DNA of 64,000 nucleotides from Methanobacteriota archaeon (GCA_963701995.1 OY969693.1:1793512-1857511); one strand, 5' to 3'. Positions 15,542 through 55,491 are shown, counted from the stretch's first letter. The notes: a model not told the origin generated them from the sequence alone. Numbers and translations are program-made.

Positions 15542-16438
15542 TCATTTTTCAGCGCCATTGGCTAGCACGCCGGCCTTGACTGCTTTTGGGAACAGGTAAT
15601 TCACAAAAGCGGAGCAAGAGACCAACATAAACTGTGCATCTTCTAGGTTTAAGTTTGGTTCATCGAGCAATGCATGGCGTATGCCATTTGCGTCACTGGT
15701 GTACCCATACAAGCTGCTGAAGGCCTGACGCAGGGCGCCATGTAGTTTTATTTTGCCAGCTCGTTCTATTTTGTTCAATGCGTCCCCTAGAGTTGCTTTT
15801 TCTCCTGCAATTTTTACACAGATTGACTCGACAGCACTAATTGACTCTTTGATTGAATTTCGATAGACGAGATCGCCGAGTCTCTCTCGGTCGGACAATA
15901 GTTTTAAGGCGTCTCGCAAATGTATGTGAGCCCCTCTAAGCGCCGGAAGGGTCGTAGTAGTGTTCAAAGCCTCTTCGACTGCGCCACGTTCTTCAGTAGA
16001 TGCAATAGGTGCAATGACTCCTGAGACGAAACGGTAGCCTGAACGCTCTTCTTCTAGGAGCTTGTTGGACTCTTCCATGAAACGAGCACTAATGTCTGCG
16101 TTTGGGTACTCGTTTGCGATGAATTCTATGAAATCGTAGACCTGGAACCATTTGAATTTAGAGAATAAACCCCTCAGCTGGAGACAATACACAGGCCAAA
16201 CGTCGACGATGAGGCTCCACATAGGTTGCTTGAAGAATTCATCCTGCAATCTTCGTGAAAACGATTTCGTAGAGTCTTTATTGTCTTCCTGCGCGGCATC
16301 TTGCCAAAAATACTTGTCTAGAGCGTTCCAAATGCGATTTCGCAAATCATCATCAATATCGTCGATCTGAACAAACGTTTTTACCGGTGTTTGCCCTTGC
16401 CTTTGGGAGAATGGAAGTTTGGGGTCTTCAGGGCTCAT
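15542..16438 (-). CDS. AbiJ-like abortive-infection protein (AbiJ N-terminal domain plus C-terminal HEPN-like domain)
   Basis: The N-terminus PFSQRQGQTPVKTFVQIDDIDDDLRNRIWNALDKYFW resembles, as recalled from memory, the AbiJ_NTD4 family. The C-terminal region carries an Rx4H motif (RGAHIH) as in HEPN RNases. Confidence 0.5.
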   Translation of the reverse strand: MSPEDPKLPFSQRQGQTPVKTFVQIDDIDDDLRNRIWNALDKYFWQDAAQEDNKDSTKSFSRRLQDEFFKQPMWSLIVDVWPVYCLQLRGLFSKFKWFQVYDFIEFIANEYPNADISARFMEESNKLLEEERSGYRFVSGVIAPIASTEERGAVEEALNTTTTLPALRGAHIHLRDALKLLSDRERLGDLVYRNSIKESISAVESICVKIAGEKATLGDALNKIERAGKIKLHGALRQAFSSLYGYTSDANGIRHALLDEPNLNLEDAQFMLVSCSAFVNYLFPKAVKAGVLANGAEK

Positions 16439-16725: not shown

Positions 16726-18018
16726 TTAGATTGTCAAGTCGACATTTCCCCAGTATTTCATGTAGATGTCATACACATGCTCGGGCAGCGGATGCTTGTA
16801 GTGCTTCCAATCAACTCCGCTAACTCCGTGTGTTAAAACATACGCTCGGTTTGACTGATCCCATTGGATAACGTCGCCATGCTGCTCCGCAAATTTTCGC
16901 AAATCTCCAAGCACAAAATGCCCTTCAAAGTGCGACATCGGGATTTTCTGACGCTTCATCCACATTTGGAAGCTATGATATCCAAACGCGCTTTCCTCGT
17001 TCTTACAGTCGCAAAGCACTGCTTGCATAGCTTCGACTACCTGCGAATGAAGGGGCACGTAGTGTTGCATCCGAATCTTATCTTGCGACGGGTCGACGGT
17101 GAGTACAGGTTTTTCGGACTGCAACGCTTCCCGAAACTGTCCGACAGTCAGCTTCGCAATCGTCGATACACTTCGCTGCCCTGTGAGCGCACCGAAAATA
17201 ACGAATGCGTTATACTGAGCTGCCCTTTCGGCGCCAATGTCTCCACGTTCTTCGGCGTGCTTGATGTAACGGAGAACGTTTTCGATATCATCCTTGGTGA
17301 CAATTCGCTCAGTTACGTTTTTGCGTTCTTTGACCGTTTTCGGACGCTCTAAGTAGGGAGAGAAACTCTGGTATCGTGGTTTAGAATGTGTCGTGGCGAG
17401 AAACTTTAGGAACGACGTTGCGAAGCCGAGTACTTTAGAGTGTGAATCGGCTGACTCGTACTTGTTAAGCACGTTTTGTCTGAATTCCTTCAGGCTATGC
17501 GGCGAAACCTCTCCCTTTGTAGACTTCCATAACTCTATTGAAGCTCGCTCTATCCAATCCTGCGATTTTTTAGCGAGCCGTTCTTTCCTGTGAGCTGTAA
17601 AGCCATTAAGGTCAGATTTTGAAAAACTGAGTTGTAGCTCGTCAGATGTGGCCTGTTCGCGAATTTCTTGCGTTTCAGCGGGGTTGTAAATAGGTTTTTC
17701 GTAAGTCTCTAGAATATCTTTAACGGCTTCTATTGTTTCAACGTCAACCGTCCTTATTTTTTGAGCTTTGTGCCACGCGCTTCGCACACTCTCGTCCAAA
17801 TGAGCATAGTCCTCGTCCTCGTCTGCTATCAGCTCTTCTGTGCTAAATTCGAGGCCTTCGTCGAGCGACCCGTCAGGGAGTCTGGTGTGGACGATAATTC
17901 CGCCACCGTAGTCGACGATGACAGTTTCTGGCGGTTCTTTTTCGTTTTCGTCATTTTCAGCAGAAGTTGGCAACTCATGAGAAGTTGGCAACTTTTCTTC
18001 GTCATCATCCGCCACCAT
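16726..18018 (-). CDS. site-specific integrase (tyrosine recombinase family)
   Basis: C-terminal box II-like H..LR.F...HG…AYVLTHG and an upstream …TGQRS… arginine box. It sits immediately adjacent to the tRNA-Val 3' end. The track ORF extends to 18099 by reading through the tRNA, so the start was trimmed to MVADDDEE. Confidence 0.7.
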   Translation of the reverse strand: MVADDDEEKLPTSHELPTSAENDENEKEPPETVIVDYGGGIIVHTRLPDGSLDEGLEFSTEELIADEDEDYAHLDESVRSAWHKAQKIRTVDVETIEAVKDILETYEKPIYNPAETQEIREQATSDELQLSFSKSDLNGFTAHRKERLAKKSQDWIERASIELWKSTKGEVSPHSLKEFRQNVLNKYESADSHSKVLGFATSFLKFLATTHSKPRYQSFSPYLERPKTVKERKNVTERIVTKDDIENVLRYIKHAEERGDIGAERAAQYNAFVIFGALTGQRSVSTIAKLTVGQFREALQSEKPVLTVDPSQDKIRMQHYVPLHSQVVEAMQAVLCDCKNEESAFGYHSFQMWMKRQKIPMSHFEGHFVLGDLRKFAEQHGDVIQWDQSNRAYVLTHGVSGVDWKHYKHPLPEHVYDIYMKYWGNVDLTI

Positions 18019-18046
18019 TTTAGCCTCTAAATCAGAAAAAGAACGA

Positions 18047-18120
18047 TGGGCTCGGCCGGATTTGAACCGGCGACCTCCGCCGTGTGAAGGCGACGTCATA
18101 ACCGCCTAGACCACGAGCCC
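18047..18120 (-). tRNA. tRNA-Val (anticodon CAC)
   Basis: Cloverleaf folded by hand. Acceptor GGGCTCG/CGAGCCC, T-arm GCCGG-TTCAAAT-CCGGC, anticodon stem TCGCC/GGCGG with loop TTCACAC, discriminator A. CCA is not encoded. Confidence 0.8.
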
Positions 18121-18228
18121 TGCTTCTCACGTCCTTTGCAAAACAGATAAGTTTATCGTTCGGCTCATACTCATTTTGTTACAGAAACCGCGAGGAAAGC
18201 CGTTTTCGGGCTCCTCCGACGGCGCATC

Positions 18229-19107
18229 ATGCACAACAACTATAAATCGACTGAGTTTTCTGACATTGATCTCAGCCGCTGGAAGGACTACGACGACGTC
18301 ATTCTCGACTCTTTATGGCTGCTCGGCCCGCGAGGCAAGACCGGGCCGCACGTCGGGGACTACTGGGGCAACTTCATCCCCCAGATTCCGTATCAGGTCT
18401 TGACCCGTTTCACGAAGCGCGGTGAGGCCGTCGTCGACCTCTTTAGCGGCATGGGCACGACGCTTATCGAGTGCAAACGGCTCGGTAGAGCCGGACTCGG
18501 CGTTGAGATCGATCCGGGCGTGGCAGAACGCTCGCTGGAACGAATAAACAGCGCAGAAAACCTGTACAACGTTCCGGTCGCCGTGCTTGTGGGTGACTCA
18601 ACGACAGCGCTTGCGGCGAAGCGTGTGCGCGCTACGCTTAGGGAATGGAACGTCAATGCGGCTGACTGCGTCATCTTGCATCCGCCCTATCACGATATAA
18701 TCCGCTTCAGTGAGCTCGAGGGCGATCTGTCGCGCGTGCCAACGGAAGCAGCTTTCTTGGATAAGATCGGTCTGGTCGCGCGACACGCGTATGACCTGCT
18801 CAAACCGGCCGGGTTCATGGCGCTCGTGATCGGTGACAAGTACGTGGACTCGCGGCTCGTCCCGCTCGGATTTATGTGCATGCAGCGCTGCGTGGATGCA
18901 GGCTTTGTGCTCAAAGCCATCAACGTCAAGGAGATCATCAACAACGAACGCGGCAAGGGAAAGAACGGTAACCTATGGAAGTACCGCGCGCTCGTGGGCG
19001 GCTTTTATCTGTTCAAGCACGAGTACGTGATGATCTTTCGTAAGCCCGCGGCGAGCAGGCGCGCACCTAAAGCCGAAAGCCTAAAGCCTAAAGATGCCGC
19101 GCCATAA
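18229..19107 (+). CDS. SAM-dependent methyltransferase (N6-A/N4-C DNA MTase-like, motif I then HPPY)
   Basis: VVDLFSGMGTTLIECKRLGR (motif I) followed by VILHPPYHD (motif IV, a DPPY variant). No partner nuclease is adjacent. Confidence 0.5.
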   Translation: MHNNYKSTEFSDIDLSRWKDYDDVILDSLWLLGPRGKTGPHVGDYWGNFIPQIPYQVLTRFTKRGEAVVDLFSGMGTTLIECKRLGRAGLGVEIDPGVAERSLERINSAENLYNVPVAVLVGDSTTALAAKRVRATLREWNVNAADCVILHPPYHDIIRFSELEGDLSRVPTEAAFLDKIGLVARHAYDLLKPAGFMALVIGDKYVDSRLVPLGFMCMQRCVDAGFVLKAINVKEIINNERGKGKNGNLWKYRALVGGFYLFKHEYVMIFRKPAASRRAPKAESLKPKDAAP

Positions 19108-19948
19108 GCTTGTCGACGTCGATATCATCGATCGGCACACGTGCGAGGGGCTCGGCGTTCAAGGAACGGTATTCGTCGTCAAACGTCGGCTTGTCGGTCT
19201 CATACAGGACCCCGATAGGTATCTTGTCTCCGGCTTCCTGCGCTTTTGTCAGCGCGAGCTCGTAATCGGTGTAGTCATACTCGGTCTCCTCGAGCTTGTA
19301 CACGTGGTCGTTCCACCACTTCCAGGTGTTGACGTGGTTGAATGTGACGCACGGCTGTCCGATGTCAACGAGCGAGAATCCCTTGTGCTGGATCGCCTTA
19401 ACCATAAGCTCGCTGAGGTGCTTGTTCTCGCCGCTAAAGCCGCGTCCGACAAAGGTCGCCCCTGCGAGCAGCGTGAGTGGCAGTGGCGTGACAGGCGACG
19501 CGACGACGCCCTCAGGGGCCACCTTCCACTTGGTGCCCTTGAAGCTCGTCGGCGACGGCTGGCCGGTCGTGAGGCCGTAGACCTGGTTGTCGTGCACGAA
19601 CACCGTGATGTCGATGTTGCGCCGCGCCGCGTGCAACAGGTGGCCGAGCCCCTCGCCATACGTGTCACCGTCACCCGCGTGCACGATGACCGTAAGGTCG
19701 CCGTTCGCGAGTTTCACCCCCTGAGCCACCGGGATTGATCTGCCGTGCAGGCTGTGGAGCACGTACGTGTTAATCCAGTAGCTGAGGTTTCCGGAGCACC
19801 CGATGCCGCACACGATCGCCGTCGTATGGGGGGCGAGGTCCATGCTCGCGTACGCGGCTTTCATCGCGTTCCAGATCCCGAAGTTTCCGCACCCCGGACA
19901 CCAGGTGGGCCACGTGCCGGGCACGTCGTAGCGATGCACGTCTGCCAT
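19088..19948 (-). CDS. 2-oxoacid:ferredoxin oxidoreductase, beta (TPP-binding) subunit
   Basis: WCPGCGNFGI…GIGCSGN TPP-binding motifs. ATG overlaps the alpha-subunit stop (start trimmed to MADVHRYD). Confidence 0.85.
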   Translation of the reverse strand: MADVHRYDVPGTWPTWCPGCGNFGIWNAMKAAYASMDLAPHTTAIVCGIGCSGNLSYWINTYVLHSLHGRSIPVAQGVKLANGDLTVIVHAGDGDTYGEGLGHLLHAARRNIDITVFVHDNQVYGLTTGQPSPTSFKGTKWKVAPEGVVASPVTPLPLTLLAGATFVGRGFSGENKHLSELMVKAIQHKGFSLVDIGQPCVTFNHVNTWKWWNDHVYKLEETEYDYTDYELALTKAQEAGDKIPIGVLYETDKPTFDDEYRSLNAEPLARVPIDDIDVDKLMARHL

Positions 19949-19949
19949 T

Positions 19950-21674
19950 TCAGAGCACCTCCTTGATGCGAGTGTAGAGTTCGTCCGCAAAGAACGCCCG
20001 TCCGTCGTACCGCAAGATGGTGTGATCAGGCCTGATCTGCGCGTGCTCTTTGAGGAGGCTGCCGAGCTGCGCTCCCCGGTTGTTTTCGATCAAGATAACG
20101 CGAGTCCCCTCAAGGCGCTCTTTCACCAGTTGCGAGGGGAAGGGGCTCATAAACACGACCTGGAGGAACCCGAGATCAACGCGGTCATTCGCTCGCAGAA
20201 GGTCCATCGCGTCGAGGATCGCTCCCTTCGTCGAGCCCCAGCCAACGAGCACCGTCTTCGTTCCGGGGTTGCCGTGGAACTTGATCCCGTGGACGAGTGT
20301 GGCGGCCGTGAAGTACTTCCGGCACCGTTTGTCGACGAGCGTTGCGACCACAGGGGCGTCTTCCGAGAAATAGCCACGCTCGTCGTGCTCATCACTGTTT
20401 GAGTTGAATATGCCACCCGGCAGTCCCGGAACGGTTCGCGTCGACACGCCGCTAGGTGTCGCCTCATAGCGCTTGAAATCGGGTGGTACCTCGCCTGCTG
20501 TGAGCAGCAAGCCGCGGTCAACGCGCAGCCCTTCGGTTGCGAACGGCTCTTCCGCGAAAAACGACGTCGCCAGGTGCTTGTCGGTGAGAACGAGCACGGG
20601 CGTTTGCAGCGTGTCAGCGAGATTGAACGCCCTGAACGTTTCGTAGAAACACTCTGCGGGGTCGCCCGGCGCGAGCACGACCCTGAAGAAGTCTCCCTGA
20701 GACGCGTGGAGGCAGAACCGCAGGTCGCCTTGGGCCGTTCGCGTCGCGAGCCCGGTGGAAGGGCCGGGGCGCTGACCTTCGACAACGACCAGCGGGTTCT
20801 CGGTCGCCCCCGCGAGGCCGAGCCCCTCAACCATGAGCGAAAAGCCACCCCCCGAGGTCGCCACCATCGAACGAGCGCCCGCAAAACTGGCCCCAACGGC
20901 GAGGTTGATCCCCGCGATTTCATCCTCCGGCTGTATCATCACCACGCCGTACTCGCGCGCTTGTGTGGCCATGTACGTCATAATGGTGTGCGTCGGCGTC
21001 ATCGGGTAGATGGCGATGAACTTCATCCCGGCTTTGAGGGCGCCCATGCAGATCGCGTCATTCCCGGTCAGAGTCATCCGTGGCGGCCCTCCGACTGGGG
21101 TCAGCCCGCCCTTATACGGCTCCGAGTACGTACGGGCGACGTAGTCGTATCCCGCCCGTGCCGCGCCCACGTTTTGTTCGACGATTTTTTCGCCTTTGCT
21201 TCCAAACGCGTCTTCGATGGCCGTGTTTAATAGGCTAAGCTCATAACCGATCAGGCCGACAGAGGCGCCCATCGCGGCCATGTTTATGGCCACCTTCGGA
21301 AGGTGCAGGTCCGCCATGAGCTGCGCGAGCGGCACGTCACACAGGGTAACGTCTTCGCGCGCTGGCGCAACGTCGGAATTTGCCGCGTCGTAAAGAAGCA
21401 AACCTCCCGGGACTAAATCGTCCAGATCCAGTGTGATCGTCTCGGCATTCAGCGCCACAAGGACGTCGACGGGCCGGGTAGGAGCCCGTATCTGCTGCGC
21501 GGCTATCCTGACCTGAAAGGTGTTATGGCCACCGCGGATTAGTGAAGGGTATTCGGTGTGTGCAACGACGTGGTAACCGCCTTTGATAAACGCTTTTGAG
21601 AAGATCTCCCCGACCGTCATGATGCCGTATCCGGCTTCGCCTCCAATCTTCCAATTCAGTTCACTATTGCTCAT
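19950..21674 (-). CDS. 2-oxoacid:ferredoxin oxidoreductase, alpha subunit (fused alpha/gamma type)
   Basis: Typical N-terminus MSNSELNWKIGGEAGYGI and ~575 aa length; start trimmed from 21764. Confidence 0.85.
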   Translation of the reverse strand: MSNSELNWKIGGEAGYGIMTVGEIFSKAFIKGGYHVVAHTEYPSLIRGGHNTFQVRIAAQQIRAPTRPVDVLVALNAETITLDLDDLVPGGLLLYDAANSDVAPAREDVTLCDVPLAQLMADLHLPKVAINMAAMGASVGLIGYELSLLNTAIEDAFGSKGEKIVEQNVGAARAGYDYVARTYSEPYKGGLTPVGGPPRMTLTGNDAICMGALKAGMKFIAIYPMTPTHTIMTYMATQAREYGVVMIQPEDEIAGINLAVGASFAGARSMVATSGGGFSLMVEGLGLAGATENPLVVVEGQRPGPSTGLATRTAQGDLRFCLHASQGDFFRVVLAPGDPAECFYETFRAFNLADTLQTPVLVLTDKHLATSFFAEEPFATEGLRVDRGLLLTAGEVPPDFKRYEATPSGVSTRTVPGLPGGIFNSNSDEHDERGYFSEDAPVVATLVDKRCRKYFTAATLVHGIKFHGNPGTKTVLVGWGSTKGAILDAMDLLRANDRVDLGFLQVVFMSPFPSQLVKERLEGTRVILIENNRGAQLGSLLKEHAQIRPDHTILRYDGRAFFADELYTRIKEVL

Positions 21675-22042
21675 CACGCCTCCAATATCGCTCGCGCCCG
21701 CGCCGACGTCGTTCGTCAGCTGTTGAGTCGCCGTCCGGTCCAACACCGTGCCGAACGAGAGCACGACTCTATAAGACTCGTCGCGAGTGATATATCTTTA
21801 GCAGTTTTGATGGGGCGTAATTCCCGTGATAGGTGCGGAAAAGCCGACCAAACGCATGGTTCTGTTTGAGATTAACAAATGCGGATGTCTAGCGGGTGAA
21901 AAGAAGCTGTTCGGGGCTGGAAGAAGCGCGAACGAGGTCGTGCCCACCTATTTAAGCGAAATCTACACTCCGAAGGCAGTTCCGCAGGTTGCGTGGCGAG
22001 TTTGGAAAAGGTGGGATTGTCCTTTCGGCTGGGCGGATGCGC

Positions 22043-30008: not shown

Positions 30009-30527
30009 ATGGAGAGCGAAGTCTCGAGAAAGGAACTAGGTACACGAACTGGCGAGGCCTTGGTTGGCGAGATGCCGGAACTTGCACATATTGACATCGC
30101 AATCGGTCAAAAAGGAGGCGCTTTTGAGACGGCTTTCCTCACAGGTCTCGCGACGCCGCGAATGGGCCATACTGCGCTGTTAGCAATATTGGCCCCAAAC
30201 TATGCCGTCAAGCCGACCACGCTTATGGTAAACAAGGTTTCGATTAAGGGCGAAGCGCAAGCTGAGCTTATGTTCGGGCCTGTCCAAGCCGCGATAGCAA
30301 AAGCAGTCCTCGACAGTGTTCAAGAAAACGTAATTCCCGCCTCTATGGTACATGAACTGATGATAATCGCATCAGTCTATATTCACGGCAGCGCCAAAGA
30401 CAAGAAAAAACTATATGAATATAACTACCAGGCGACAAAAAGCGCAATCAGCAACGCAATGAAGGATTTGCCGACGATAAACGAGCTATTATCCAAGAAG
30501 GACACCATTGTGCACCCCCTGATGTAG
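30009..30527 (+). CDS. fae: formaldehyde-activating enzyme Fae (5,6,7,8-tetrahydromethanopterin hydro-lyase)
   Basis: End-to-end resemblance to Fae: GEALVG…AHID…IGQKGG…ETAF, LLAILAPN, KPTTLMVNKV(S/T)IKG, MFGPVQAAIAKAV and KKLYEYNYQATK; 172 aa. Confidence 0.85.
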   Translation: MESEVSRKELGTRTGEALVGEMPELAHIDIAIGQKGGAFETAFLTGLATPRMGHTALLAILAPNYAVKPTTLMVNKVSIKGEAQAELMFGPVQAAIAKAVLDSVQENVIPASMVHELMIIASVYIHGSAKDKKKLYEYNYQATKSAISNAMKDLPTINELLSKKDTIVHPLM

Positions 30528-46467: not shown

Positions 46468-47928
46468 TTAGAACGCATCATCCTGTGCGTAGCTCCTTCC
46501 CAGCTTCAGCGCGATTTCTGCCTTTTTCAACTCACGTCCAAGATACGCTGCGTGGGATGCCGTCGATACGAGCTCAAGCTCAAAAATAGCATCAAGCAAA
46601 CCTTTTGCGAAATTGCCTTGTACGGTGATTCCCGTGTCGTGCCTCGCAACGATCATTCCCCCTCTAACACCGATCACGAAGTTGCCGGCTGGGTCAGGCG
46701 CCCACTTCGCTGTGTCGAAGTCCTTAGCGTCGAGGACGTTGATGCTGGTGATTCGATACTCCGGTCGCCGCCTGCGCTCTTTCAATACGAGAAGATCAAG
46801 GCCTAGATCTTTGGGTGGGCTTTTTCGATACTGAGCGAGCTGCATCATCTGAGCCGCTGTTTTCAGCTCATTAACGCTGCCCTTTGCCTTGTCACTGTGC
46901 TCAGGAGTAAAAAGCACGCCAACCCCTAGCTCCATTGCCAGACCGGCAAGCAGAGCGTTAGCGCCTATCGAGTCGGCTTCCATAAGCTCAACGATGTTGC
47001 CGACGCCGAGAAACAGCGGCACGTTGCTGACCGATCTGACGCGGTGGTACTCGGCGAGCGAGTTGGAGGCGCCACTGCCTATCGGGTATAGGACAGGATC
47101 GGCGATGATTTTGCTGATGCCAAAAGTCCGCGCGAGAGCTACGGTAGAGCAAACATCGCCGTTTTCGGGCAACACCACAACTGCAAGGTCTTTTCTTGCG
47201 ACGGTGGGTCCTATCTCGGCGGCGTTTTCTGCCGTAAGTGAGAGAACGAGTTCAGCGCCTGACTCTATTCCAGCGCAGATAAGCTCTGGATCGAGACTAT
47301 CTATGCTGAGGGGGACGTTGTACTCGTCGGTTACCGCGCTAACCTCAGCGAAGGTGCGGCTCACCTCGCGCTTCGCGGTTCCGAGAGGTATGCCGACGTC
47401 GATGACATCGGCCCCGTTGCGTATATGCTGCAATGCAATTCGCTTAGCATCTGCAACTGGAGCGTCGATTATCTCTCCGAGCACCTTCATTCGAGAGTTT
47501 CCTCCAATTTTTAGGTCTCGAATTTTGAAATCATAAGCTGCAGATGTCTCTAGCTGCGTCAATAGGTTCAGGGCGTCACTTCTACGCTTTTCGCGAATGA
47601 TACGGTCAGCTGGCTCGTTAAGCGACAGCATAGATTGATCGAGTGACGCAAGCACCAAGCCGAGATCATAGGCCTGTTTTGGGCCTAGAGCAATTTTCAC
47701 GCTCAGCTCGTCACCAAGCGCCCCAAAGTCAGCGGGATTAGCAGAGCCGGGAATCAAGATCACATCGTGCTTGTGACCGTGCCGCCTTGAGAACTCGACG
47801 TACGCCTCCCTTAAGAGGGGAGGGGTCATCAGCGCCGCAATGTCTACGTCCAGAACCAACACATCTGCGGCTGCGCCTACAGCCTCTCTAACGACTTGTT
47901 CGGCGCAGCGACCGGTCGCTACAAGCAC
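46468..47928 (-). CDS. dihydropteroate-synthase-like pterin-binding protein (MJ0107-like; N-terminal domain plus Pterin_bind plus C-terminal DUF)
   Basis: Central TIM-barrel pterin-binding-like segment (…DVIDVGIPLGT…LSIDS…) flanked by extra N- and C-terminal domains, as recalled for archaeal DHPS-like fusion proteins. The assignment is tentative. Confidence 0.4.
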   Translation of the reverse strand: MLVATGRCAEQVVREAVGAAADVLVLDVDIAALMTPPLLREAYVEFSRRHGHKHDVILIPGSANPADFGALGDELSVKIALGPKQAYDLGLVLASLDQSMLSLNEPADRIIREKRRSDALNLLTQLETSAAYDFKIRDLKIGGNSRMKVLGEIIDAPVADAKRIALQHIRNGADVIDVGIPLGTAKREVSRTFAEVSAVTDEYNVPLSIDSLDPELICAGIESGAELVLSLTAENAAEIGPTVARKDLAVVVLPENGDVCSTVALARTFGISKIIADPVLYPIGSGASNSLAEYHRVRSVSNVPLFLGVGNIVELMEADSIGANALLAGLAMELGVGVLFTPEHSDKAKGSVNELKTAAQMMQLAQYRKSPPKDLGLDLLVLKERRRRPEYRITSINVLDAKDFDTAKWAPDPAGNFVIGVRGGMIVARHDTGITVQGNFAKGLLDAIFELELVSTASHAAYLGRELKKAEIALKLGRSYAQDDAF

Positions 47929-47993
47929 TCGTTCTATAGGTTCCCACCTGTAACAACATACTCTTAATATGCTATATCACAATTACTGATGGT

Positions 47994-48659
47994 ATGAGGT
48001 TTGATCTGCACATTCATTCACATTTTTCTCCTGACTCAAACAGCTCAGTCGAAGCGATACTTAGGCAGGCACAAGAAGCCGGTCTCAACGGACTCGCGAT
48101 TACTGATCATAATTCTGTGCAATCTTTCTTTGATGCAGTGAGGCTTACGGAGGATCTGGGACTGAATCTCATCATAATACCGGGCGCTGAGATCTCAACA
48201 GCGGAGGGTCATTTGATCACGCTCGGAAATCACACTCTTGTGCCCCCCGGTTTATCTGCTTCTGAAACCAGCAAACGCGCTCACGACGGCCATGGGATCG
48301 TCGTGGCGGCTCATCCATTCGAATTATTCAGAAAGGGCATCCGTAGTTTGCGCAACAAGAGGATAGACGCTGTTGAAGCGTTCAATTCAAGGCGCCTTCT
48401 TGGCGTCTCTAATTATCTCGCGACTCGTTCAGCTGCGAAACTGAACCTTGGGGTCACTGGCGGAAGTGATTCTCACAACGTGGAGACGGTCGGTTTTGGG
48501 TATACTGAAGTAGATGCTGCGAGCGGCGTCACTGTACAGGACATACTACGCGCCATACAGGCTGGCAGATCTACAGCGAGCGGCCGCGTATCGCCACGTC
48601 TCCGGTCAGCGAGTTATTCATTTAAGGCGCGGGTCTTGAATAATAGGAATAGCCGTTAA
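47994..48659 (+). CDS. PHP-domain metal-dependent phosphoesterase
   Basis: MRFDLHIHSHFSPDS…LAITDHN…GGSDSH histidine motifs of the PHP family. Confidence 0.75.
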   Translation: MRFDLHIHSHFSPDSNSSVEAILRQAQEAGLNGLAITDHNSVQSFFDAVRLTEDLGLNLIIIPGAEISTAEGHLITLGNHTLVPPGLSASETSKRAHDGHGIVVAAHPFELFRKGIRSLRNKRIDAVEAFNSRRLLGVSNYLATRSAAKLNLGVTGGSDSHNVETVGFGYTEVDAASGVTVQDILRAIQAGRSTASGRVSPRLRSASYSFKARVLNNRNSR

Positions 48660-48707
48660 ATTACCCCCAAATAAAAACATCGAACCGGGCGTTTTAGCAC
48701 GTGCAGC

Positions 48708-49412
48708 TCACATAGTTGCCCAAAGCGCCTCCCCAAGTTGATGAGGACTGTCGAGAATCGTGATTCCTTCCGAATCTCTGAGGGTTCGGACGTTGTTCTT
48801 GTCAATGTCGCGGACTATAAGGTTCACCGTCCCCTCTTGGATCGCGTCATAATCGCACACGTCTTTGCACAAGCCGCAGCCGTTGCATTTGAGGTAGTCG
48901 ATTTGCTCGTCAATCGCATCGTTTGGGCAAGCTTGAGCGCAGTCGCGGCACTCAGTGCAAAGATCTCTGTTTATGAAGTAAGGTACAGGACTTTTAACGC
49001 TACCTTCAATGTCGACAGGAACGATGAAAACCAGAACCCCGCCTTTCACGGCGTGCGCGACCGCATTAGTAATCAATGAATCAGCAATGCCGTGAGCTAT
49101 TTTGGCTACCGTATTGGACGTAGCCGGGGACACAAACAATGCGTCATAGATGCCGCGCGAGAAGCGGCCTGTCTTTGGGTAGCTCCATCCCTGTTCGCGT
49201 TCGAGTATGACCTCCTCCATGTACCCTCCCGGTGAAACTCGATCCAAGTATTGAAAAAGGCCGTAGACCCGTGCCACCTCCTCTGCAGCCCTCGAGACAA
49301 ATGAAGTCACAGCCACGCGGTCGCCGTAGGCTTCCTTTGCCTCGACGAATAAATCAAACGTTTCGCGTAAATGATGACCAGCCCCCGTAATACCCCACGC
49401 GATTCTTGCCAT
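48708..49412 (-). CDS. flavoprotein with C-terminal 2x[4Fe-4S] ferredoxin domain (DmrX/AfpA-like; candidate dihydromethanopterin reductase)
   Basis: N-terminal MARIAWGITGAGHHL flavoprotein (PF02441-like) fold, plus CTECRDCAQACP and CNGCGLCKDVC cluster motifs. Confidence 0.5.
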   Translation of the reverse strand: MARIAWGITGAGHHLRETFDLFVEAKEAYGDRVAVTSFVSRAAEEVARVYGLFQYLDRVSPGGYMEEVILEREQGWSYPKTGRFSRGIYDALFVSPATSNTVAKIAHGIADSLITNAVAHAVKGGVLVFIVPVDIEGSVKSPVPYFINRDLCTECRDCAQACPNDAIDEQIDYLKCNGCGLCKDVCDYDAIQEGTVNLIVRDIDKNNVRTLRDSEGITILDSPHQLGEALWATM

Positions 49413-49433
49413 AGCCCCCCCAACCTTCTGATC

Positions 49434-50864
49434 TTAATCCTGTTGTCTAGATGTGATCGCTTGTCCAAGATATTTCTTTAGGAGCTTGAATGCTTCAAAT
49501 TCGCGCCTTCCACCGCACTTAGTAACGATGCTCTCGCAGTGAGTCATTCGCTCGAGGTAGGCTGGGTCTTCAAGAGTCTGATAACGTGTTGCGTGAATTG
49601 TTGCTTCAAGCACAGCGCAAAAAGCCCTGTTCACAGGTATGATTGGTCGCTGCAGGACAACAGATCTCACAGGCTGGAGCTCAACTACGGCGCTTTTTTG
49701 AGTCGGTTTTTCCAGAATCACGCACGTAAATTCCACCCATGCGTACGCTGCCTTTAGGACAGGCGCCGTCTCATCGGGGGAAAAAAAGTCAGGTCCGAGG
49801 TCCTCAAAGGCGGTTTTCACGTAAATCAGCGGATCCGCAACAAAGTTAGCAACCAACTGACGGTTTTTTTTAACGTTCAAAAAAGTGTGGCTGTCTTTGT
49901 AAACGGAAATGTAAAGGGAGCCGCGATTTATGACGCCCATGGGAGCGGCGTTGGGCTGGCTATTACGCGTCGTTGCTATAACTTCTGAGATGCCTTCGTG
50001 AAATTGCACTTCCATCAGTACCCGGAAACCTCCTAAGAGCACGACAAATAATGATCCAATCACGAGATCTGCTGTCGTCCCGGGGTTGATGTGCCGCGCG
50101 AGGAGCTCTTTGTCGAACTCATCGGCGGCGTCCTGTTTCAGCACTTGGGCCGCCTTTGCCGAAACCTCAAGGGCGACATCAGTGCTGAATTTTTTCGCTA
50201 TGAGTGTATCGGGGAACTCGCTGAGGAGTTGAAGAAACAACTGCACAATTGAATTCTTGACACTGAACCCCGATTCAATGTAGTGTGTCATCAATTCGGC
50301 GCCGTAAAAAGTGCGAGGAAATCCTTCAGCCCACTCCTTTGCTATAGTGTCGTTTGGGCTCGATATTTGCATAACGTCCCACAGGGTCAGATTTTGTTGC
50401 TGAATCGCTTGCAATGAGGACGCGTCATTCACGTCAAGATAGTGATGCTCTCCGACGCGGACGTGGACGCTCCGAAAAGACTCATAGAACTGGATCGCAT
50501 CAGCGCTCGAAGTCTGCTTGACGACGCGGACGAGGTTAGTCTTGAGTTGAGATATCGTGCTGCTTTTCCGTGCTGCGGCACATAAGGGGATCAGCAGCAG
50601 GATCGCGCCAAAGTGACAATTCCCCGCACTCTGCCAGGTGGTACTTGCTTGAACCGCATCGAGAATCAGACCGCCTATCCGATGCCGGGCTGACGCTGCT
50701 TTTTTAAACACAGGAAAAGTGCCGACTGCGGATGCAAGAAAATGTTCGTAAGTTACATCTTCAAAGTCATGCGTTCGGTCTACATTGCCCGGCTTTGGTG
50801 TCGCGGACACCTCGAGCAACATTGCTAGCTCGGCACAACCGGCTATGAAGTCTGGCTCGTACAT
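49434..50864 (-). CDS. fusion: CitG-like triphosphoribosyl-dephospho-CoA-synthase domain plus DUF447 (FMN-binding split-barrel-like)
   Basis: The N-terminal half has CitG/MdcB motifs (…KPGNVDRTHDF…GNCHFGAILLLIPL). The C-terminal ~190 aa resembles DUF447. Start trimmed to MYEPDF to remove a 65-nt overlap. Confidence 0.5.
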   Translation of the reverse strand: MYEPDFIAGCAELAMLLEVSATPKPGNVDRTHDFEDVTYEHFLASAVGTFPVFKKAASARHRIGGLILDAVQASTTWQSAGNCHFGAILLLIPLCAAARKSSTISQLKTNLVRVVKQTSSADAIQFYESFRSVHVRVGEHHYLDVNDASSLQAIQQQNLTLWDVMQISSPNDTIAKEWAEGFPRTFYGAELMTHYIESGFSVKNSIVQLFLQLLSEFPDTLIAKKFSTDVALEVSAKAAQVLKQDAADEFDKELLARHINPGTTADLVIGSLFVVLLGGFRVLMEVQFHEGISEVIATTRNSQPNAAPMGVINRGSLYISVYKDSHTFLNVKKNRQLVANFVADPLIYVKTAFEDLGPDFFSPDETAPVLKAAYAWVEFTCVILEKPTQKSAVVELQPVRSVVLQRPIIPVNRAFCAVLEATIHATRYQTLEDPAYLERMTHCESIVTKCGGRREFEAFKLLKKYLGQAITSRQQD

Positions 50865-50874
50865 GTTGAAAAGC

Positions 50875-52032
50875 TTAGTCGACGTCTCGGCAGCTGAGAA
50901 ATCTCTCTGCAAGTTGCTTTTTGAGTTGCATGTACTCAACGTCGGAAAAACCTAGGTCGTACAGAGTGCTATCTCTCCACGGGCACGGCCTTGTAATTTT
51001 GCAGCACCACACCATGCTGCCGAAGCACGTGCCTGGTCCCGCCCCTAGCTTTGTGTTGTTGAAGCTCTCCTTGATTTGGACGTACTCTTCCTTGGAGATC
51101 CCCGCTCTTTTCAGAACATAGCGCAGTGGACACTCTTTTACGGGCATGCAACAGTACGCTAACCCCCGCAAGTCCCCTCCAGCGCAAATGTGTTTTGGGG
51201 CATTGTACCAGCCAACCGCTTCTTGATATGACTGAACTTCAGCCAGGATTTCTTCAACAGCGGTGTTATCGGCCACAGCAGCACGGGCGACTGAGACGTA
51301 ATCCGCCCCCATCGAGAACATCTTGTGGGCGCTGCCATAGTCCACGATCGAATTGTTTGCGATTATTTTGAGCGCCGTGGCATCCCGAATTTTCTTGACC
51401 AACGCGGGTCCGGAATCCATCGTGTCGACATGAATCGCGTCGGCGCCGGCCTTATCTATAACCTTTGCGAGCTCTATATCTGCTACAACGCCTGCGCGTA
51501 CCTTCACCGACAGAGGCACGTCTGTTTGTTTGATCTCCCGTATCCATTCGCTGAGCTTGTTGAGATCGCGCGTGAGACATTGGCCGGCGCCAACAGCTTC
51601 CATTTCAGGCTGCCTGCAGTGGGCGTTTAGTTCGAGAATTGCCCCTTTTTGATGAATCAACTCGGCGATCGCGATCAGGGGCTCCAGCGTAGTTGACCGA
51701 GCATTGATTCCGGCTTTCATGTTGATCGTGCTCATGACTCCGAGCTCGTTTTCGATAACAGGGGTCGGTTCGTCGTAAGCAAATTCGCTTCGCCCCTTTT
51801 TGACAAGCTCTTTTGCCGCTTCGGTGGTTGGCGCGTCAAGGTTGTATCCACCGAGAATTGCTAGTCCCACGCTCCGCGAGATAGCAAACGAGCTGTTAGT
51901 TAGTCCAGCCATAGAAGCGAGAACTAAAGGATTCGGGATTTGGACATCGCCGATCGCCAGTTGAAAGGCTACTTGAGACACGATGAAACCTCTATGCGTA
52001 TCAAGACTCACTCGCTGCCCTGAAATGGGCAA
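50875..52032 (-). CDS. DUS-like FMN-dependent TIM-barrel oxidoreductase with C-terminal Cys-rich domain
   Basis: LASMAGLTNSSF, ELNAHCRQPE (catalytic Cys) and LSVKVRAG mirror the dihydrouridine-synthase motifs (LAPMAGVTD / NxGCP / VSVKIR). The C-terminal ~100 aa carry two CC…C-P repeats (YCCMPVKECP, WCCKITRPCP). Confidence 0.5.
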   Translation of the reverse strand: MPISGQRVSLDTHRGFIVSQVAFQLAIGDVQIPNPLVLASMAGLTNSSFAISRSVGLAILGGYNLDAPTTEAAKELVKKGRSEFAYDEPTPVIENELGVMSTINMKAGINARSTTLEPLIAIAELIHQKGAILELNAHCRQPEMEAVGAGQCLTRDLNKLSEWIREIKQTDVPLSVKVRAGVVADIELAKVIDKAGADAIHVDTMDSGPALVKKIRDATALKIIANNSIVDYGSAHKMFSMGADYVSVARAAVADNTAVEEILAEVQSYQEAVGWYNAPKHICAGGDLRGLAYCCMPVKECPLRYVLKRAGISKEEYVQIKESFNNTKLGAGPGTCFGSMVWCCKITRPCPWRDSTLYDLGFSDVEYMQLKKQLAERFLSCRDVD

Positions 52033-52116
52033 GTAGTAATACGGACGTTCAATATTGTATTTTGCTGCTATTTAATTTTACTTTGCAGACGCCGACTCCG
52101 CTCTTAACAGATGACC

Positions 52117-53025
52117 TTAACTTTGGGGTGCAAGTATTCGCACGATCTCTGTCGCCAGCTTTTTGCTTTGCTCCATGCCATACATAATCGTATCCGCGCG
52201 GAGCAGTTCAATATCGCCCGGCAAGTCGCTTTGAGAAATGTCGTCGCGATGGTCAACGATCAAGACGTCCAAGAAGTCGCTATAGAACTCCGCAACCCCT
52301 AAAGAGCTGACCGGAAGTCCATGCGATTCCATGAACTTTCGCGCAGGTCCGCTTATCGGCTCGCCGCGTACTATTGGACTAACGGCAATGACAAATCGGT
52401 CTTTAAGGATTTGTCGCATTCCGTTTACGTTAAGAATAGGCCCTATGCTTGATATCGGATTTGAAGGCCCAATCACAACAGAACGATGTTCTCCTAGCGC
52501 TGTTTCTACTTCTTTGGTCATTTTGCCGGCCCGGGACCTCACCTGCGAAACGCTCGGGGCTTGCTGATATTTTACCAGAAAATCTTGGATATGCATCTCG
52601 CCGTTGTCGGTTAGGATCGTGGTAGGCACGAAGTCGTCCGTCATCGGGAGGACCCTAGCAGATAATTCGAACGAAGCGCATATCGCAAGGGTTGCATCAG
52701 TTAGGGTTGCCCCTCGTCGCAGAAGGTCGCTGCGGAAAATATGAATAGCTCTATCAAGCTCGCCTATGATGAGCGCTTCTTTGTGTCCTAAGCTGGCTAG
52801 TCTTTCGTTGGTACAGAACGTATCCCCGTCGATGCCCCACCACCGTTCGCTCACAATTCCCGCTGCGGTGTAGATAACTGTGTCAAGGTCCGGACAAACA
52901 AGATTGCCCGAGATCCAGATGTCATCTCCAGTATTAGCTATGACGGTCACTTGAGCGCCAGGACAATAGAAAAGCAGCCCGCGAAGCAGCTTAGGGCTAC
53001 CTGTTCCGCCCGATAAGAGTAGCAA
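52117..53025 (-). CDS. cofD: 2-phospho-L-lactate transferase (LPPG:Fo transferase) CofD
   Basis: N-terminal LLSGGTGSPKLLRGL and overall CofD/UPF0052 pattern; 302 aa. Confidence 0.75.
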   Translation of the reverse strand: MLLLSGGTGSPKLLRGLLFYCPGAQVTVIANTGDDIWISGNLVCPDLDTVIYTAAGIVSERWWGIDGDTFCTNERLASLGHKEALIIGELDRAIHIFRSDLLRRGATLTDATLAICASFELSARVLPMTDDFVPTTILTDNGEMHIQDFLVKYQQAPSVSQVRSRAGKMTKEVETALGEHRSVVIGPSNPISSIGPILNVNGMRQILKDRFVIAVSPIVRGEPISGPARKFMESHGLPVSSLGVAEFYSDFLDVLIVDHRDDISQSDLPGDIELLRADTIMYGMEQSKKLATEIVRILAPQS

Positions 53026-53329: not shown

Positions 53330-53701
53330 TTGAGCGGGAGTAGATATTTGTCTCGTGGTCACTTTGTTTTGACGAGGAACGCGGGCTCAGCAGATTTGAG
53401 GGTCGACGCAACTCGCGTGGGAAAAGACTTACTCGTCACGTTGGTGGGGGGAAAAGCGCACGTGGGCGCCGTTGCGCTAGGCGGATTTCACAGGAGGTCG
53501 TATGCTTCGGTGTTAGCTGTGCCCAATCATCGCGATGATATCATCGCTAAAGAAGCTGCTTTGCGAATTTCGAAGGAATTGCGGCAGAGCTGCGTCGTGG
53601 TTGTCGGGATTCACGTCCACGACGCATCTGAAGAGCAAGTCGCAGAGATTGTTGATGCATCATTTTCGCTTGTTAATGAACTTATCGAGGCTCTCAAATG
53701 A
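53330..53701 (+). CDS. hypothetical protein translationally coupled to ubiX
   Basis: 123-aa ORF (the real start may be an internal GTG) whose stop overlaps the ubiX ATG (ATGA). Gly-rich segment LVGGKAHVGAVALGG. Confidence 0.35.
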   Translation: MSGSRYLSRGHFVLTRNAGSADLRVDATRVGKDLLVTLVGGKAHVGAVALGGFHRRSYASVLAVPNHRDDIIAKEAALRISKELRQSCVVVVGIHVHDASEEQVAEIVDASFSLVNELIEALK

Positions 53702-54252
53702 CGATAATAGTTGCCATTACCGGCGCGAGCGGAGTGCAGTACGGCGTTCGGTTGCTGGAGGTTCTGAATCAACTCGGCGTTGACACGCAGCTCGTTGTGA
53801 CCAAAAGTGGCCAGCAGCTTATAGGCATTGAGACTGACTACAGCTTGAACTACGTCACGTCGCTAGTCAACCGCACGTACGACGAAATGGACCTCACCGC
53901 GCCCATTGCAAGTGGTTCCCACATTAGCAACGGCATGGTGATAATTCCGTGCAGCGTGAAGACGCTTGGAAGCATCGCACACGGCGTTTCTTCCAACCTT
54001 GTAGCGCGCGCGGCAGATGTATGTTTGAAGGAACATAGGAGGCTCATATTGGTTGTGCGCGAAACGCCGTTGAGCGGGATTCATTTGGGCAACATGCTGA
54101 AATTGTCGCAATGTGGAGCTGTCATAGTCCCCGCCAGTCCGGGGTTTTACACACGTCCGACTACGATCGAAGAGCTCATTGACGCTTTGGTTGCCCGGGT
54201 GCTCGACCTGTTGCAGGTTGACCATTCGGTGTCGCGACGCTGGGGTGACTAA
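53698..54252 (+). CDS. ubiX: flavin prenyltransferase UbiX/Pad1 family
   Basis: MTIIVAITGASGVQYGVRLLEVL…VIPCS…RE signature; 184 aa. Confidence 0.85.
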   Translation: MTIIVAITGASGVQYGVRLLEVLNQLGVDTQLVVTKSGQQLIGIETDYSLNYVTSLVNRTYDEMDLTAPIASGSHISNGMVIIPCSVKTLGSIAHGVSSNLVARAADVCLKEHRRLILVVRETPLSGIHLGNMLKLSQCGAVIVPASPGFYTRPTTIEELIDALVARVLDLLQVDHSVSRRWGD

Positions 54253-55491
54253 ATGAGACGCTTCATTCAGCATCTAAAGGACTCGGGACAACTGGAAGTC
54301 ATAACTAAGCCCGTTTCGCCGATATTGGAAGCGCCGCGCCTAGCCCGAGGACGAGGACCGGTACTGTTCGAACGTGTTGGCGGCTCTCAAGCCATCGTAA
54401 ACCTCCTGGCTTCGCGCGCGCTACTCGCCCAAGCGCTCAATGTCGACGAACGAGGGCTCATGCATAAGCTTTTGAGCACGGCGGCAACGGGAAAAACGGT
54501 AATGCAAGACCTTGCGTGGGACTTAGAACGCACTCCGGACCTGAGCAAGTTACCTGTAATGAAGTTTTTCGAGCGAGATGGCGGACCGTACATCACCGCA
54601 GGCGTCGTAGTGGCAAAATATGGTAACAGAGTAAACGCGTCAGTTCATCGCATGATGGTCGTCGACAAAACTTCGTTAGCTGTGAGGCTCGTGCCGCCGC
54701 GCCACACGTATCTGATGCATAAAGCATCTGCAAAAAAAGACGAGCCTCTGAACATCGCCGTCGCCATAGGCGTTGATCCTGTCACGCTATTTGCAACCAC
54801 AACGAGACTCCCGTGTGGTCTCGAATTCAACTATGCGGCCGCCCTGAAGGGAAAGGCTCAGACTCTTATTGAATGTGAGAATGGAATCCCTGTGCCGCCA
54901 AGCGAAATAGTCTTGGAGGGACAAATAAGCCCAACGAGAACTACAAATGAAGGTCCTTTTGTGGATCTTACGGGGACTTATGACGTCGTTCGACCTGAAC
55001 CCGTTATCGAAGTAACGAGAATGGTGTCGGCTAGAGACCCCATCTATCACTCCATATTGCCAGCGGGCGTCGAACACTCGCTTTTGATGGGCATTCCGTA
55101 TGAACCGCAGATCTACAACGCGTGCAAAAACGTAACAAAAGTGAAGAATGTAGTATTAACTGCAGGAGGACGACACTATCTGCACGCTGTTATACAGATA
55201 GAGAAACAGACCGAGGGGGACGCAAAAAATGTGATCATGGCAGCGTTTGCGGCTCACACGAGTTTGAAACACGTTGTGGTGGTCGATGAGGACATTGATA
55301 TCTATGACGTTGATGATATAGAATTTGCAGTTGCCACCCGCGTCAAAGGCGATTTAGATGTTATGGTCATCCCAAACGTTCGCGGATCGTCCCTCGACCC
55401 GCGCACTGCAAGCGACGGCACGACAACGAAGGTCGGCGTCGATGCCACCGCACCGCTGGTCGATCACTGGAAGTTTGAGAGGGTCCGTTAA
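54253..55491 (+). CDS. UbiD-family (prFMN-dependent) decarboxylase
   Basis: 412 aa with a UbiD-like core (…GPYITAGVVVAKY…VTRMVSARDPIYHSILPAG…). Starts 1 nt after the ubiX stop. Confidence 0.75.
   Translation: MRRFIQHLKDSGQLEVITKPVSPILEAPRLARGRGPVLFERVGGSQAIVNLLASRALLAQALNVDERGLMHKLLSTAATGKTVMQDLAWDLERTPDLSKLPVMKFFERDGGPYITAGVVVAKYGNRVNASVHRMMVVDKTSLAVRLVPPRHTYLMHKASAKKDEPLNIAVAIGVDPVTLFATTTRLPCGLEFNYAAALKGKAQTLIECENGIPVPPSEIVLEGQISPTRTTNEGPFVDLTGTYDVVRPEPVIEVTRMVSARDPIYHSILPAGVEHSLLMGIPYEPQIYNACKNVTKVKNVVLTAGGRHYLHAVIQIEKQTEGDAKNVIMAAFAAHTSLKHVVVVDEDIDIYDVDDIEFAVATRVKGDLDVMVIPNVRGSSLDPRTASDGTTTKVGVDATAPLVDHWKFERVR

Follow-up and report, generated by a model that had tools for sequence, protein, structure and literature searches.

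Which cofactor is served by the genes at positions 46468–53025 of a 64,000-nucleotide stretch of a Methanobacteriota archaeon genome (GCA_963701995.1, OY969693.1:1793512-1857511; hereafter the window), and what reactions might the less familiar of them catalyze? The region encodes a protein resembling dihydropteroate synthase (DHPS-like), a PHP phosphoesterase, the flavoprotein–ferredoxin DmrX, a CitG-like and a DUF447 protein that share a single open reading frame (ORF), a flavin mononucleotide (FMN) enzyme with a cysteine-rich tail that we call DusM9, and CofD. Our analysis indicates that the region is very probably a conserved cluster for the biosynthesis of methanopterin and coenzyme F420, in which the CitG–DUF447 fusion is a singleton and for whose uncharacterized members fold and context suggest roles. 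An original prediction, made from the DNA, had already described a neighborhood of this kind, and all of the families that it named were recovered by our scans at their positions (Table 1). The six co-oriented genes that it counted are obtained if CitG-like and DUF447 are taken as separate genes, but not otherwise.

We assigned gene families from six-frame ORFs by hidden Markov model scans with curated equivalog cut-offs and Pfam. By these scores CofD, which exceeds the TIGR01819 equivalog cut-off, is assigned as the 2-phospho-L-lactate (2-PL) transferase of F420 biosynthesis, and DmrX as a dihydromethanopterin reductase of the MJ0208 type, the enzyme of the last methanopterin step. The DmrX sequence reads as a flavoprotein domain followed by two CxxCxxCxxxC ferredoxin motifs, CTECRDCAQACP and CNGCGLCKDVCD. 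The earlier description of cofD and DmrX as only partly characterized does not hold, since the reactions of both enzymes are established (PMC8498797; PMC6193120), DmrX and its bacterial relatives AfpA/DmrB being known dihydromethanopterin reductases (PMC6193120). The DHPS-like protein combines a pterin-binding barrel with a C-terminal PterinBD-DUF4346 domain and matches TIGR00284 over its full length above the cut-off. It scores only 25.7 bits against the bacterial FolP model (TIGR01496, cut-off 162.6), and from these matches it is probably the pterin–arylamine condensing enzyme of the methanopterin pathway. The fusion ascribed to it does exist, although it is the normal architecture of the named TIGR00284 family and not a special feature of this locus. 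The PHP gene lies, as predicted, on the opposite strand among the minus-strand genes; its product reaches 77.8 bits with the CehA/McbA domain model NF038032 (cut-off 80) and is a candidate phosphatase of the pathway.

The intergenic gaps along the minus strand from cofD through DusM9, CitG-like and DUF447 to DmrX measure 135, 10, 0 and 21 nt, and from this spacing the five genes appear to form one operon. The DHPS-like and PHP genes diverge from a common AT-rich spacer of 65 bp. The true starts of CitG-like (ATG at 50864) and DusM9 (GTG at 51981) are likely downstream of the ORF starts originally listed. The gene for formaldehyde-activating enzyme (fae), a user of tetrahydromethanopterin (H4MPT), is indeed present elsewhere in the window, as had been predicted, but it lies ~16 kb from the cluster and is not a member of it.

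The gene order is maintained among relatives. We searched for related loci with a nine-sequence CitG-like alignment and compared 80 species-level loci. The best of them come from peat metagenome-assembled genomes (MAGs), namely SPRUCE 304, with a CitG-like protein 98% identical to that of the window, ‘bog_38’ and ‘fen_3’ (91–93%) and Microflora-Danica-type MAGs, followed by Methanocellales at ~50% and then by Methanoperedens and Methanosarcinales at ~45%. On this measure we place the host as an uncultured peat methanogen of the ‘bog_38’/SPRUCE MAG lineage, with the Methanocellales as its nearest named relatives; this lineage is presumably the Rice Cluster II/Methanoflorens group. Every bog_38-family locus with enough flank (13–16 loci per gene; L001–L019) keeps the full gene order at 60–98% protein identity, which bears out a conserved cofactor-biosynthesis neighborhood of DmrX, DHPS-like, cofD, CitG-like and DUF447. 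DUF447 lies directly downstream of the CitG-like gene in all 16 of these loci and in 54 of 60 others, which comprise other Methanocellales, Methanoperedens and Methanosarcinales, and because this adjacency is near-universal, we regard the pair as a robust ancient unit. The further neighbors of the CitG-like gene are constant within the family: DusM9 directly upstream (16/16, versus 7/53 elsewhere, the seven including Methanocella and several Methanosarcinales), and, in its vicinity, DmrX (15/15 versus 7/59), PHP and DHPS-like (each 13/13 versus 3/44) and cofD (14/14 versus 3/40). DusM9 joins the CitG-like/DUF447 pair repeatedly, the full cluster is typical of the bog_38 family plus a few relatives, and the clustering exceeds chance.

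The PHP gene is found between DmrX and DHPS-like in 13 of 13 bog_38-family loci and also in L030, L031, L033 and L035. All bog_38-family loci extending far enough have, divergent from cofD, a trio encoding an LpdD-like protein, UbiX and UbiD, and UbiD/UbiX lie near cofD in L030 and L035 as well; the trio possibly acts on an aromatic precursor of a cofactor, and its membership in the cluster is putative. The Methanoperedens loci are uninformative: the CitG-like/DUF447 pair adjoins genes for SecY and for shikimate and prephenate dehydrogenases, and the neighbor of DusM9 is an Fpo/Nuo-type complex.

Several individual loci have features of their own. In L030, a DUF763 gene and a calcineurin-like phosphoesterase gene stand between cofD and CitG-like, in the position that DusM9 has in the window. 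A protein with HD and HD_assoc_2 domains is encoded near cofD/UbiX in two methanogen lineages, L030 (2722-3936, 9040-9717) and L035 (6788-8239), and also at the haloarchaeal L093 (6147-7379). Two complete archaeal clusters with an archaeal threonyl-tRNA synthetase carry labels of other taxa: L015 (DASPOC010000058.1, ‘Candidatus Bathyarchaeia archaeon’; 92% CitG-like identity) and L019 (DASPRZ010000030.1, ‘Candidatus Acidiferrales bacterium’; 60%). Their gene order is that of the window, and the labels are probably binning errors.

The original prediction derived a functional coupling of CitG-like and DUF447 from their fusion in one polypeptide. In the window sequence, the single ORF exists only through one extra G (GG to GGG, 50021–50023), one codon ahead of the CitG-like stop, by which CitG-like comes to be read in the frame of DUF447. 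The window reads TTCCGGGTACTGATGG, and in the DNA alignment each of nine species genomes, and likewise each of two metagenome contigs, is one G shorter. The ancestral CitG-like stop, TGA at 50017–50015, shares one base with the ATG of DUF447 (50015–50013), which is intact and is here read through from CitG-like; in the relatives, the same stop and start overlap by one base (TGATG). At the protein level, the nearest homologues of the 501-aa ORF are 282 aa long and match only its first 56%, ending in ...GGFRY* where the window continues as ...GGFRVLMEVQF, and DUF447 is a separate gene of 191–192 aa. No fusion is present in any of the 80 species-level loci, where the two genes are separate and mostly overlapping, or in any of 11 close relatives, one of them at 98% protein identity.

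Database records give the same picture. The fused product counted from the ATG at 50864 (476 aa) is recorded on a single contig of 2,115,296 bp and is the only fused one among the 40 members that we read of the 250 in its 90%-identity cluster, the others being 282-aa CitG-like proteins, 192-aa DUF447 proteins or fragments. When the whole fused query was searched against 1.84 billion representatives and the best 150 were considered, the highest scores went to CitG-like proteins (238 bits) and DUF447 proteins (232 bits), each on its own, and the only real fusion was P0249, a 526-aa protein of 29% identity with a complete CitG C terminus plus a linker before DUF447. It is encoded on an archaeal contig (L086 2710-4290, JGI 3300041080), adjoining an archaeosine tRNA-guanine transglycosylase gene. 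The other long hit in two stretches, P0222, is a CitG-like protein with an insertion. Two further candidates for a recurrent fusion were set aside: the CitG C terminus of P0066 is frameshifted, and an uncalled Methanomethylovorans ORF (L085 9131-10336, DAIPCQ010000017.1) joins the N-terminal 200 residues of CitG-like to the C-terminal 130 of DUF447 with ~70 residues missing across the junction. We read the latter, which has DusM9 upstream and a PHP homologue (41% identity) downstream on the opposite strand, as a pseudogene or an assembly collapse.

Could the fusion nonetheless be a genuine, selected bifunctional enzyme that channels product between its domains? The ORF is unbroken in the deposited 2.1-Mb contig, and the extra G is the only consistently placed single-base indel inside a gene between 40.0 and 60.9 kb in comparison with nine relatives (the remaining recurrent indels lie between genes or have lengths divisible by three), so that the assembly does not abound in errors. 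A distant organism has a true, linker-containing fusion, and a fusion should be tolerable for two genes that are translationally coupled everywhere. Despite these points we consider a selected fusion doubtful: it is missing from every species locus and close relative compared, a change in homopolymer length is a typical assembly error, and the other public ‘fusions’ are products of frameshift or deletion. We interpret the junction as an error of assembly or a mutation of very recent origin and not as an evolved architecture, and the fusion as a conserved feature falls with it. The functional coupling of CitG-like and DUF447 that had been predicted from it survives through their adjacency and overlap. 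Apparent fusions of overlapping, translationally coupled genes can stem from one base and are best compared with relatives first.

DusM9, the neighbor of this pair, is assigned as a TIM barrel of the dihydroorotate dehydrogenase (DHOD), dihydropyrimidine dehydrogenase (DPD) and tRNA dihydrouridine synthase (Dus) class that binds FMN and is fused to the cysteine-rich methanogenesis marker 9 domain (COG4008), whose cut-off it exceeds. It is related to the MJ0144 family (TIGR00736), but with 154.6 bits falls below the cut-off of 218.7 and is not filed as an equivalog. An AHCRQ motif is invariant in 64 sequences, as are eight cysteines arranged in two C-x(6-10)-CC-x5-C motifs. The AlphaFold (AF2) model is confident (pLDDT 94.4, pTM 0.92), and its best matches among folds in the PDB are DHOD B, DPD and Dus (Foldseek E ~1e-9, TM 0.54–0.64), while the best PDB matches by sequence are FMN enoyl reductases. 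From these likenesses we suggest that DusM9 is an FMN enzyme that would reduce an activated double bond with a cysteine as the acid, and that a cysteine-bound metal or iron–sulfur (Fe-S) module may be placed where DPD has its Fe-S domain. COG4008, formerly named a ‘predicted metal-binding transcription factor’, has been listed as specific to methanogens (PMC3416665). The Dus-like architecture with a cysteine-rich tail does recur, in a fused form of ~370 aa that is widespread (Methanoperedens, Methanomethylovorans and many MAGs), but it is a standard one, which NCBI already names ‘methanogenesis marker 9 domain-containing protein’.

The core order cofD, Dus-like, CitG-like and DUF447 is found again in haloarchaea. 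In all five haloarchaeal genomes checked (Natrinema thermotolerans, Halostagnicola, Natrialba, Natronobacterium and Haloarchaeobius), cofD abuts or overlaps a Dus-like gene with a gap of ≤5 nt. In N. thermotolerans (L087, CP031304.1 645670-660188), cofD (TIGR01819, 359 bits) overlaps by 4 nt the gene for a 253-aa barrel that is 41% identical to that of the window and keeps NAHCRQ but is without marker 9, and genes for CitG-like (42% identical) and DUF447 proteins, mutually overlapping, lie ~2 kb further on. In Halostagnicola, cofD, Dus-like, CitG-like and DUF447 are contiguous and co-oriented, and in the remaining three genomes the Dus-like gene directly follows or overlaps cofD. The coordinates of the haloarchaeal cofD/Dus-like genes are 5003-8400 in L092 and around 5000-6750 in L090, L091 and L093. 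The recurrence of this core order points to genuine membership of cofD in the unit. Haloarchaea make F420 but reportedly rely on tetrahydrofolate and have no methanopterin-specific enzymes (PMC8305020). Since they cluster the same core, the families of unassigned reaction cannot be tied to methanopterin alone. The methanopterin reading of the original prediction stands insofar as the cluster of DmrX, DHPS-like and cofD is conserved, but is qualified by the similar clustering of the core in organisms reported to be without methanopterin, the kind of finding that the prediction itself had named as contrary to it and that here holds in part.

The haloarchaeal loci raise an alternative for the flavoenzyme, namely that it belongs to the F420 and not the methanopterin branch, reducing dehydro-F420-0 (the ‘CofX’ step) or converting phosphoenolpyruvate (PEP) to 2-PL; its gene would then lie next to cofD because the enzyme serves F420. 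A lactate kinase, CofB, has never been found, so that the source of 2-PL is unassigned; an archaeal dehydro-F420-0 reductase, CofX, has been postulated but likewise lacks a gene, and whether 2-PL or PEP is the archaeal starting compound is disputed (PMC6450877, PMC8498797, PMC8764529). A review of F420 mentions no TIM-barrel or Dus-like gene next to cofD. In addition to the haloarchaeal neighbors, where the marker-9-less orthologue retains AHCRQ, cofD is adjacent to DusM9 in 14 of 14 bog_38-family loci, and both the fold class, which reduces C=C bonds that are in conjugation with a carboxylate or carbonyl, and the enoyl reductase matches suit such a reaction. The bacterial H4MPT island examined (Azospirillum) yielded no detectable homologue of DusM9, and the HisA/HisF-like barrel beside fae there, considered as a counterpart, has no similarity to it that we could find. 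Against this stand the DusM9 genes of Methanocella and Methanosarcinales, which adjoin CitG-like/DUF447, cofD being absent from the flanks examined, and that of Methanoperedens, which is beside neither; the neighborhood by itself cannot separate the two cofactor branches. A cofD-coupled flavoenzyme resembling DHOD and enoyl reductases is a reasonable candidate for the side-chain reduction of archaeal F420, but we judge an exclusive F420 role to be possible and, on present evidence, unlikely.

The gene order might also have been inherited without any coupling, with DusM9 a dihydrouridine-synthase-like enzyme of RNA and cofD, PHP and UbiD/UbiX mere bystanders. In favor of this, the fold matches include Dus structures, tRNA-dihydrouridine synthase is the name that NCBI gives to the orthologues in haloarchaea, and the extended cluster is mostly limited to one family. 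This explanation is nevertheless very improbable. The DusB and DusC equivalogs score 39.4 and 23.7 bits against cut-offs of 293.3 and 395, and the C-terminal helical domain with which Dus enzymes bind tRNA is replaced in DusM9 by the cysteine-rich marker 9 domain. The four-gene order is found also in haloarchaea, at class-level divergence and with overlapping stops and starts, and DusM9–CitG–DUF447 is found in three orders.

Public annotation and the Pfam match (PF01874) would make the CitG-like protein an ordinary triphosphoribosyl-dephospho-CoA synthase, serving citrate lyase or malonate decarboxylase by making their prosthetic group. This can be virtually discounted, since all four CitG/MdcB equivalogs (TIGR03125, TIGR03132, NF002315 and NF007503) score 22–42 bits against cut-offs of 272–477, neither the annotated window genes nor the related-locus genes that we examined were found to include citX, citDEF or mdc, the protein is constantly partnered by DUF447, and its bacterial homologue sits among H4MPT genes.

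That bacterial homologue is encoded on an Azospirillum plasmid in the order fhcD-fhcA-...-mptG-mtdB-ATP-grasp-mch-RimK-CitG-like-fae, which matches the methylotroph H4MPT island mch-orf5-orf7-fae-orf17 (PMC3615186). Its position inside a one-carbon (C1)-transfer island upholds the predicted link of the CitG-like family to H4MPT; literature searches on CitG in methanopterin biosynthesis, on MJ0301/MJ0107 and on marker 9 returned nothing useful. Of the solved homologues, 3H9P for CitG-like is annotated only as ‘putative’, and 2NR4 (E 5e-41), 2IML and 2PTF for DUF447 are uncharacterized. In Halobellus limi (L088, NZ_CP031312.1, 5149-10785), npdG is followed by genes for a mer-like protein, DUF447, a protein of the ribofuranosyl-aminobenzene phosphate (RFAP) synthase family and two MetE-type methionine synthases. 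DUF447 there has a mer homologue on one side and a gene of the RFAP synthase family on the other, which places it beside the step that forms ribofuranosyl-aminobenzene. The run looks like a C1/methyl-transfer unit built, in a haloarchaeon, on methanopterin-type biosynthesis genes.

Together, these observations suggest a pathway for the methanopterin/F420 cluster. By family and known biochemistry, CofD transfers phospholactate to FO to give F420-0, and DmrX reduces dihydromethanopterin to H4MPT. The DHPS-like enzyme would couple the pterin with RFAP; DUF447, a putative flavin-binding protein, would act on the RFAP-derived sugar, likely reducing ribofuranosyl to ribityl; and CitG-like, by analogy with CitG, would add an α-linked ribose from ATP, displacing adenine with inversion and leaving an activated 5-triphosphate. 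PHP may remove a phosphate. DusM9, with an FMN that would be wired to Fe-S clusters, may reduce an activated double bond (C=C or C=N) located in the side chain of methanopterin or else in the enolpyruvyl/lactyl part of F420.

Several points weigh against this picture. The roles of CitG-like, DUF447, PHP and DusM9 are drawn from context and fold. The extended cluster is rare outside the bog_38 family, and its order may in part be inherited synteny. The occurrence of the cofD/Dus-like/CitG-like/DUF447 order in haloarchaea, despite their reported use of folate, makes a strictly methanopterin role insecure. The TIGR00284 family is only putatively the same paralogue as the characterized pterin–RFAP condensing enzyme of Methanocaldococcus jannaschii. 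Finally, phosphoribosyl pyrophosphate, and not ATP, is said to have been the ribosyl donor in published work with cell extracts.

Several steps in the assembly of the methanopterin side chain are without an assigned enzyme, and the origin of the archaeal F420 phospholactyl group is disputed; for both, the locus and its haloarchaeal counterpart give a short list of candidates beside the characterized CofD and DmrX, and haloarchaea are genetically tractable. A bolder proposal would make the core enzymes the long-missing ones, with the cofD-coupled flavoenzyme, wired here to the Fe-S-type marker 9 domain, as the reductase behind the saturated lactyl group of F420, acting on dehydro-F420-0 or turning PEP into 2-PL in place of CofB, and CitG-like, DUF447 and PHP responsible for ribosylation, reduction and dephosphorylation of the methanopterin type. 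This is speculative and, we think, quite unlikely; if true, haloarchaea would make an unrecognized methanopterin-like side chain or use the core enzymes for another cofactor. With respect to the original prediction, the gene content and clustering, the cofactor neighborhood and the CitG-like/DUF447 coupling are retained, while a recurrent fusion as architecture, the ORF starts, the label ‘fusion’ for standard families and the notion of partly characterized enzymes are not. What the present analysis adds is the cofD/Dus-like/CitG-like/DUF447 core common to a peat methanogen lineage and haloarchaea, which offers candidates in two pathways.

Table 1. Positions and supporting matches of the cluster genes and related features in the window.
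Feature	Position	Strand	Supporting matches and remarks
DHPS-like	46468-47928	-	TIGR00284 301.6 bits (cut-off 256.65), residues 2-484; PF00809; PF14251
PHP phosphoesterase	47994-48659	+	PF02811 + PF13263
DmrX	48708-49412	-	TIGR02700 297.1 bits (cut-off 251.35); PF02441 + Fer4 x2
Single ORF holding CitG-like then DUF447	49434-50939	-	PF01874 251 bits; PF04289/PF20766; 501 aa
DUF447 gene/domain	49434-50015	-	PF04289 95.5 bits; PF20766 63.5 bits; both above gathering score
CitG-like	50016-50864	-	PF01874 251 bits; probable start ATG at 50864
GGG run with extra G	50021-50023	-	DNA alignment with 11 relatives
Dus-like barrel + Cys-rich tail ORF	50875-52032	-	PF01207; TIGR03277 153.6 bits (cut-off 96.2)
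DusM9, later start	50875-51981	-	GTG start at 51981; 368 aa
cofD	52117-53025	-	TIGR01819 321.4 bits (cut-off 257.45), residues 1-295 of 302; PF01933
LpdD-like small protein, UbiX, UbiD-family decarboxylase	53330-55491	+	PF21758; TIGR00421 240 bits; TIGR00148 421 bits
fae	30009-30527	+	PF08714 218 bits; outside cluster

Elsewhere in the window, a protein of the 6-pyruvoyl-tetrahydropterin-synthase family (PF01242; 58352-58900, plus strand) is encoded 5 kb from the cluster and could be QueD or an enzyme of a pterin branch. The first 18,120 nucleotides have a lower G+C content (0.44–0.49), end at a tRNA gene (18047-18120) and carry a type I restriction-modification system (3910-9556), a YgjP-like peptidase, a Prim-Pol protein (10793-13363), an AbiJ-domain protein (15542-16438) and several ORFs without a Pfam match; from this content the segment looks like an integrated mobile or defense island. 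Positions 18001-22000, at a G+C content of 0.59–0.60 against ~0.50 elsewhere, contain a DNA-methylase fragment and genes for a 2-oxoacid:ferredoxin oxidoreductase (19088-21764).

The cluster resembles the H4MPT islands of methylotrophs (mch-orf5-orf7-fae-orf17 and orf19-orf20-afpA-orf21-orf22; PMC3615186), which likewise group cofactor genes of partly unknown reaction and whose orf19 and orf20 may correspond to DUF447 and DHPS-like. In the bacterial island, the place of orf7, with a RimK-type ligase on one side and fae on the other, is taken by a CitG-like gene, and the flavoprotein AfpA/DmrB is related to archaeal DmrX (PMC6193120). The archaeal cluster differs in that it adds cofD, DusM9, PHP and a ferredoxin-fused DmrX and is without the C1-transfer enzymes mch, mtdB and fhc. 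A second likeness is to CitG/CitX of citrate lyase, with family PF01874 common to CitG and the CitG-like protein. CitG takes the ribose of ATP with loss of adenine, making an α-glycosidic link and leaving a 5-triphosphate, from which a second enzyme forms a phosphodiester. Such a product matches the α-ribosyl-5-phosphodiester of methanopterin. The window protein, in contrast, fails the CitG equivalog cut-offs and has DUF447 as its partner, with no CitX or acyl-carrier partner among the genes examined, and by analogy its acceptor would be the ribitol 5-OH.

For DusM9, the closest structural parallels are DHOD B and DPD, in which Fe-S clusters feed an FMN barrel. Like them it has an invariant cysteine (in AHCRQ) on the loop that succeeds strand 4, and its barrel precedes a cysteine-rich module at the C terminus, as that of DPD precedes the Fe-S domain. 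It differs in that identity is 16–18%, marker 9/COG4008 is not a ferredoxin fold, and there is no module for NADPH or flavin adenine dinucleotide. If the flavoenzyme acts on F420, its role would be analogous to that of FbiB's C-terminal domain and of FbiE, the FMN-dependent reduction of the enolpyruvyl C=C, and each is encoded beside a core F420 gene (PMC6450877, PMC8498797). The nitroreductase fold of FbiB/FbiE is, however, unrelated to the Dus-like TIM barrel, which is linked to cofD and not to cofE. Unlike the haloarchaeal Dus-like orthologues, which are without the marker-9 domain, DusM9 joins the Dus-like proteins of the MJ0144 family (TIGR00736) and the stand-alone marker 9 (TIGR03277) in one protein.

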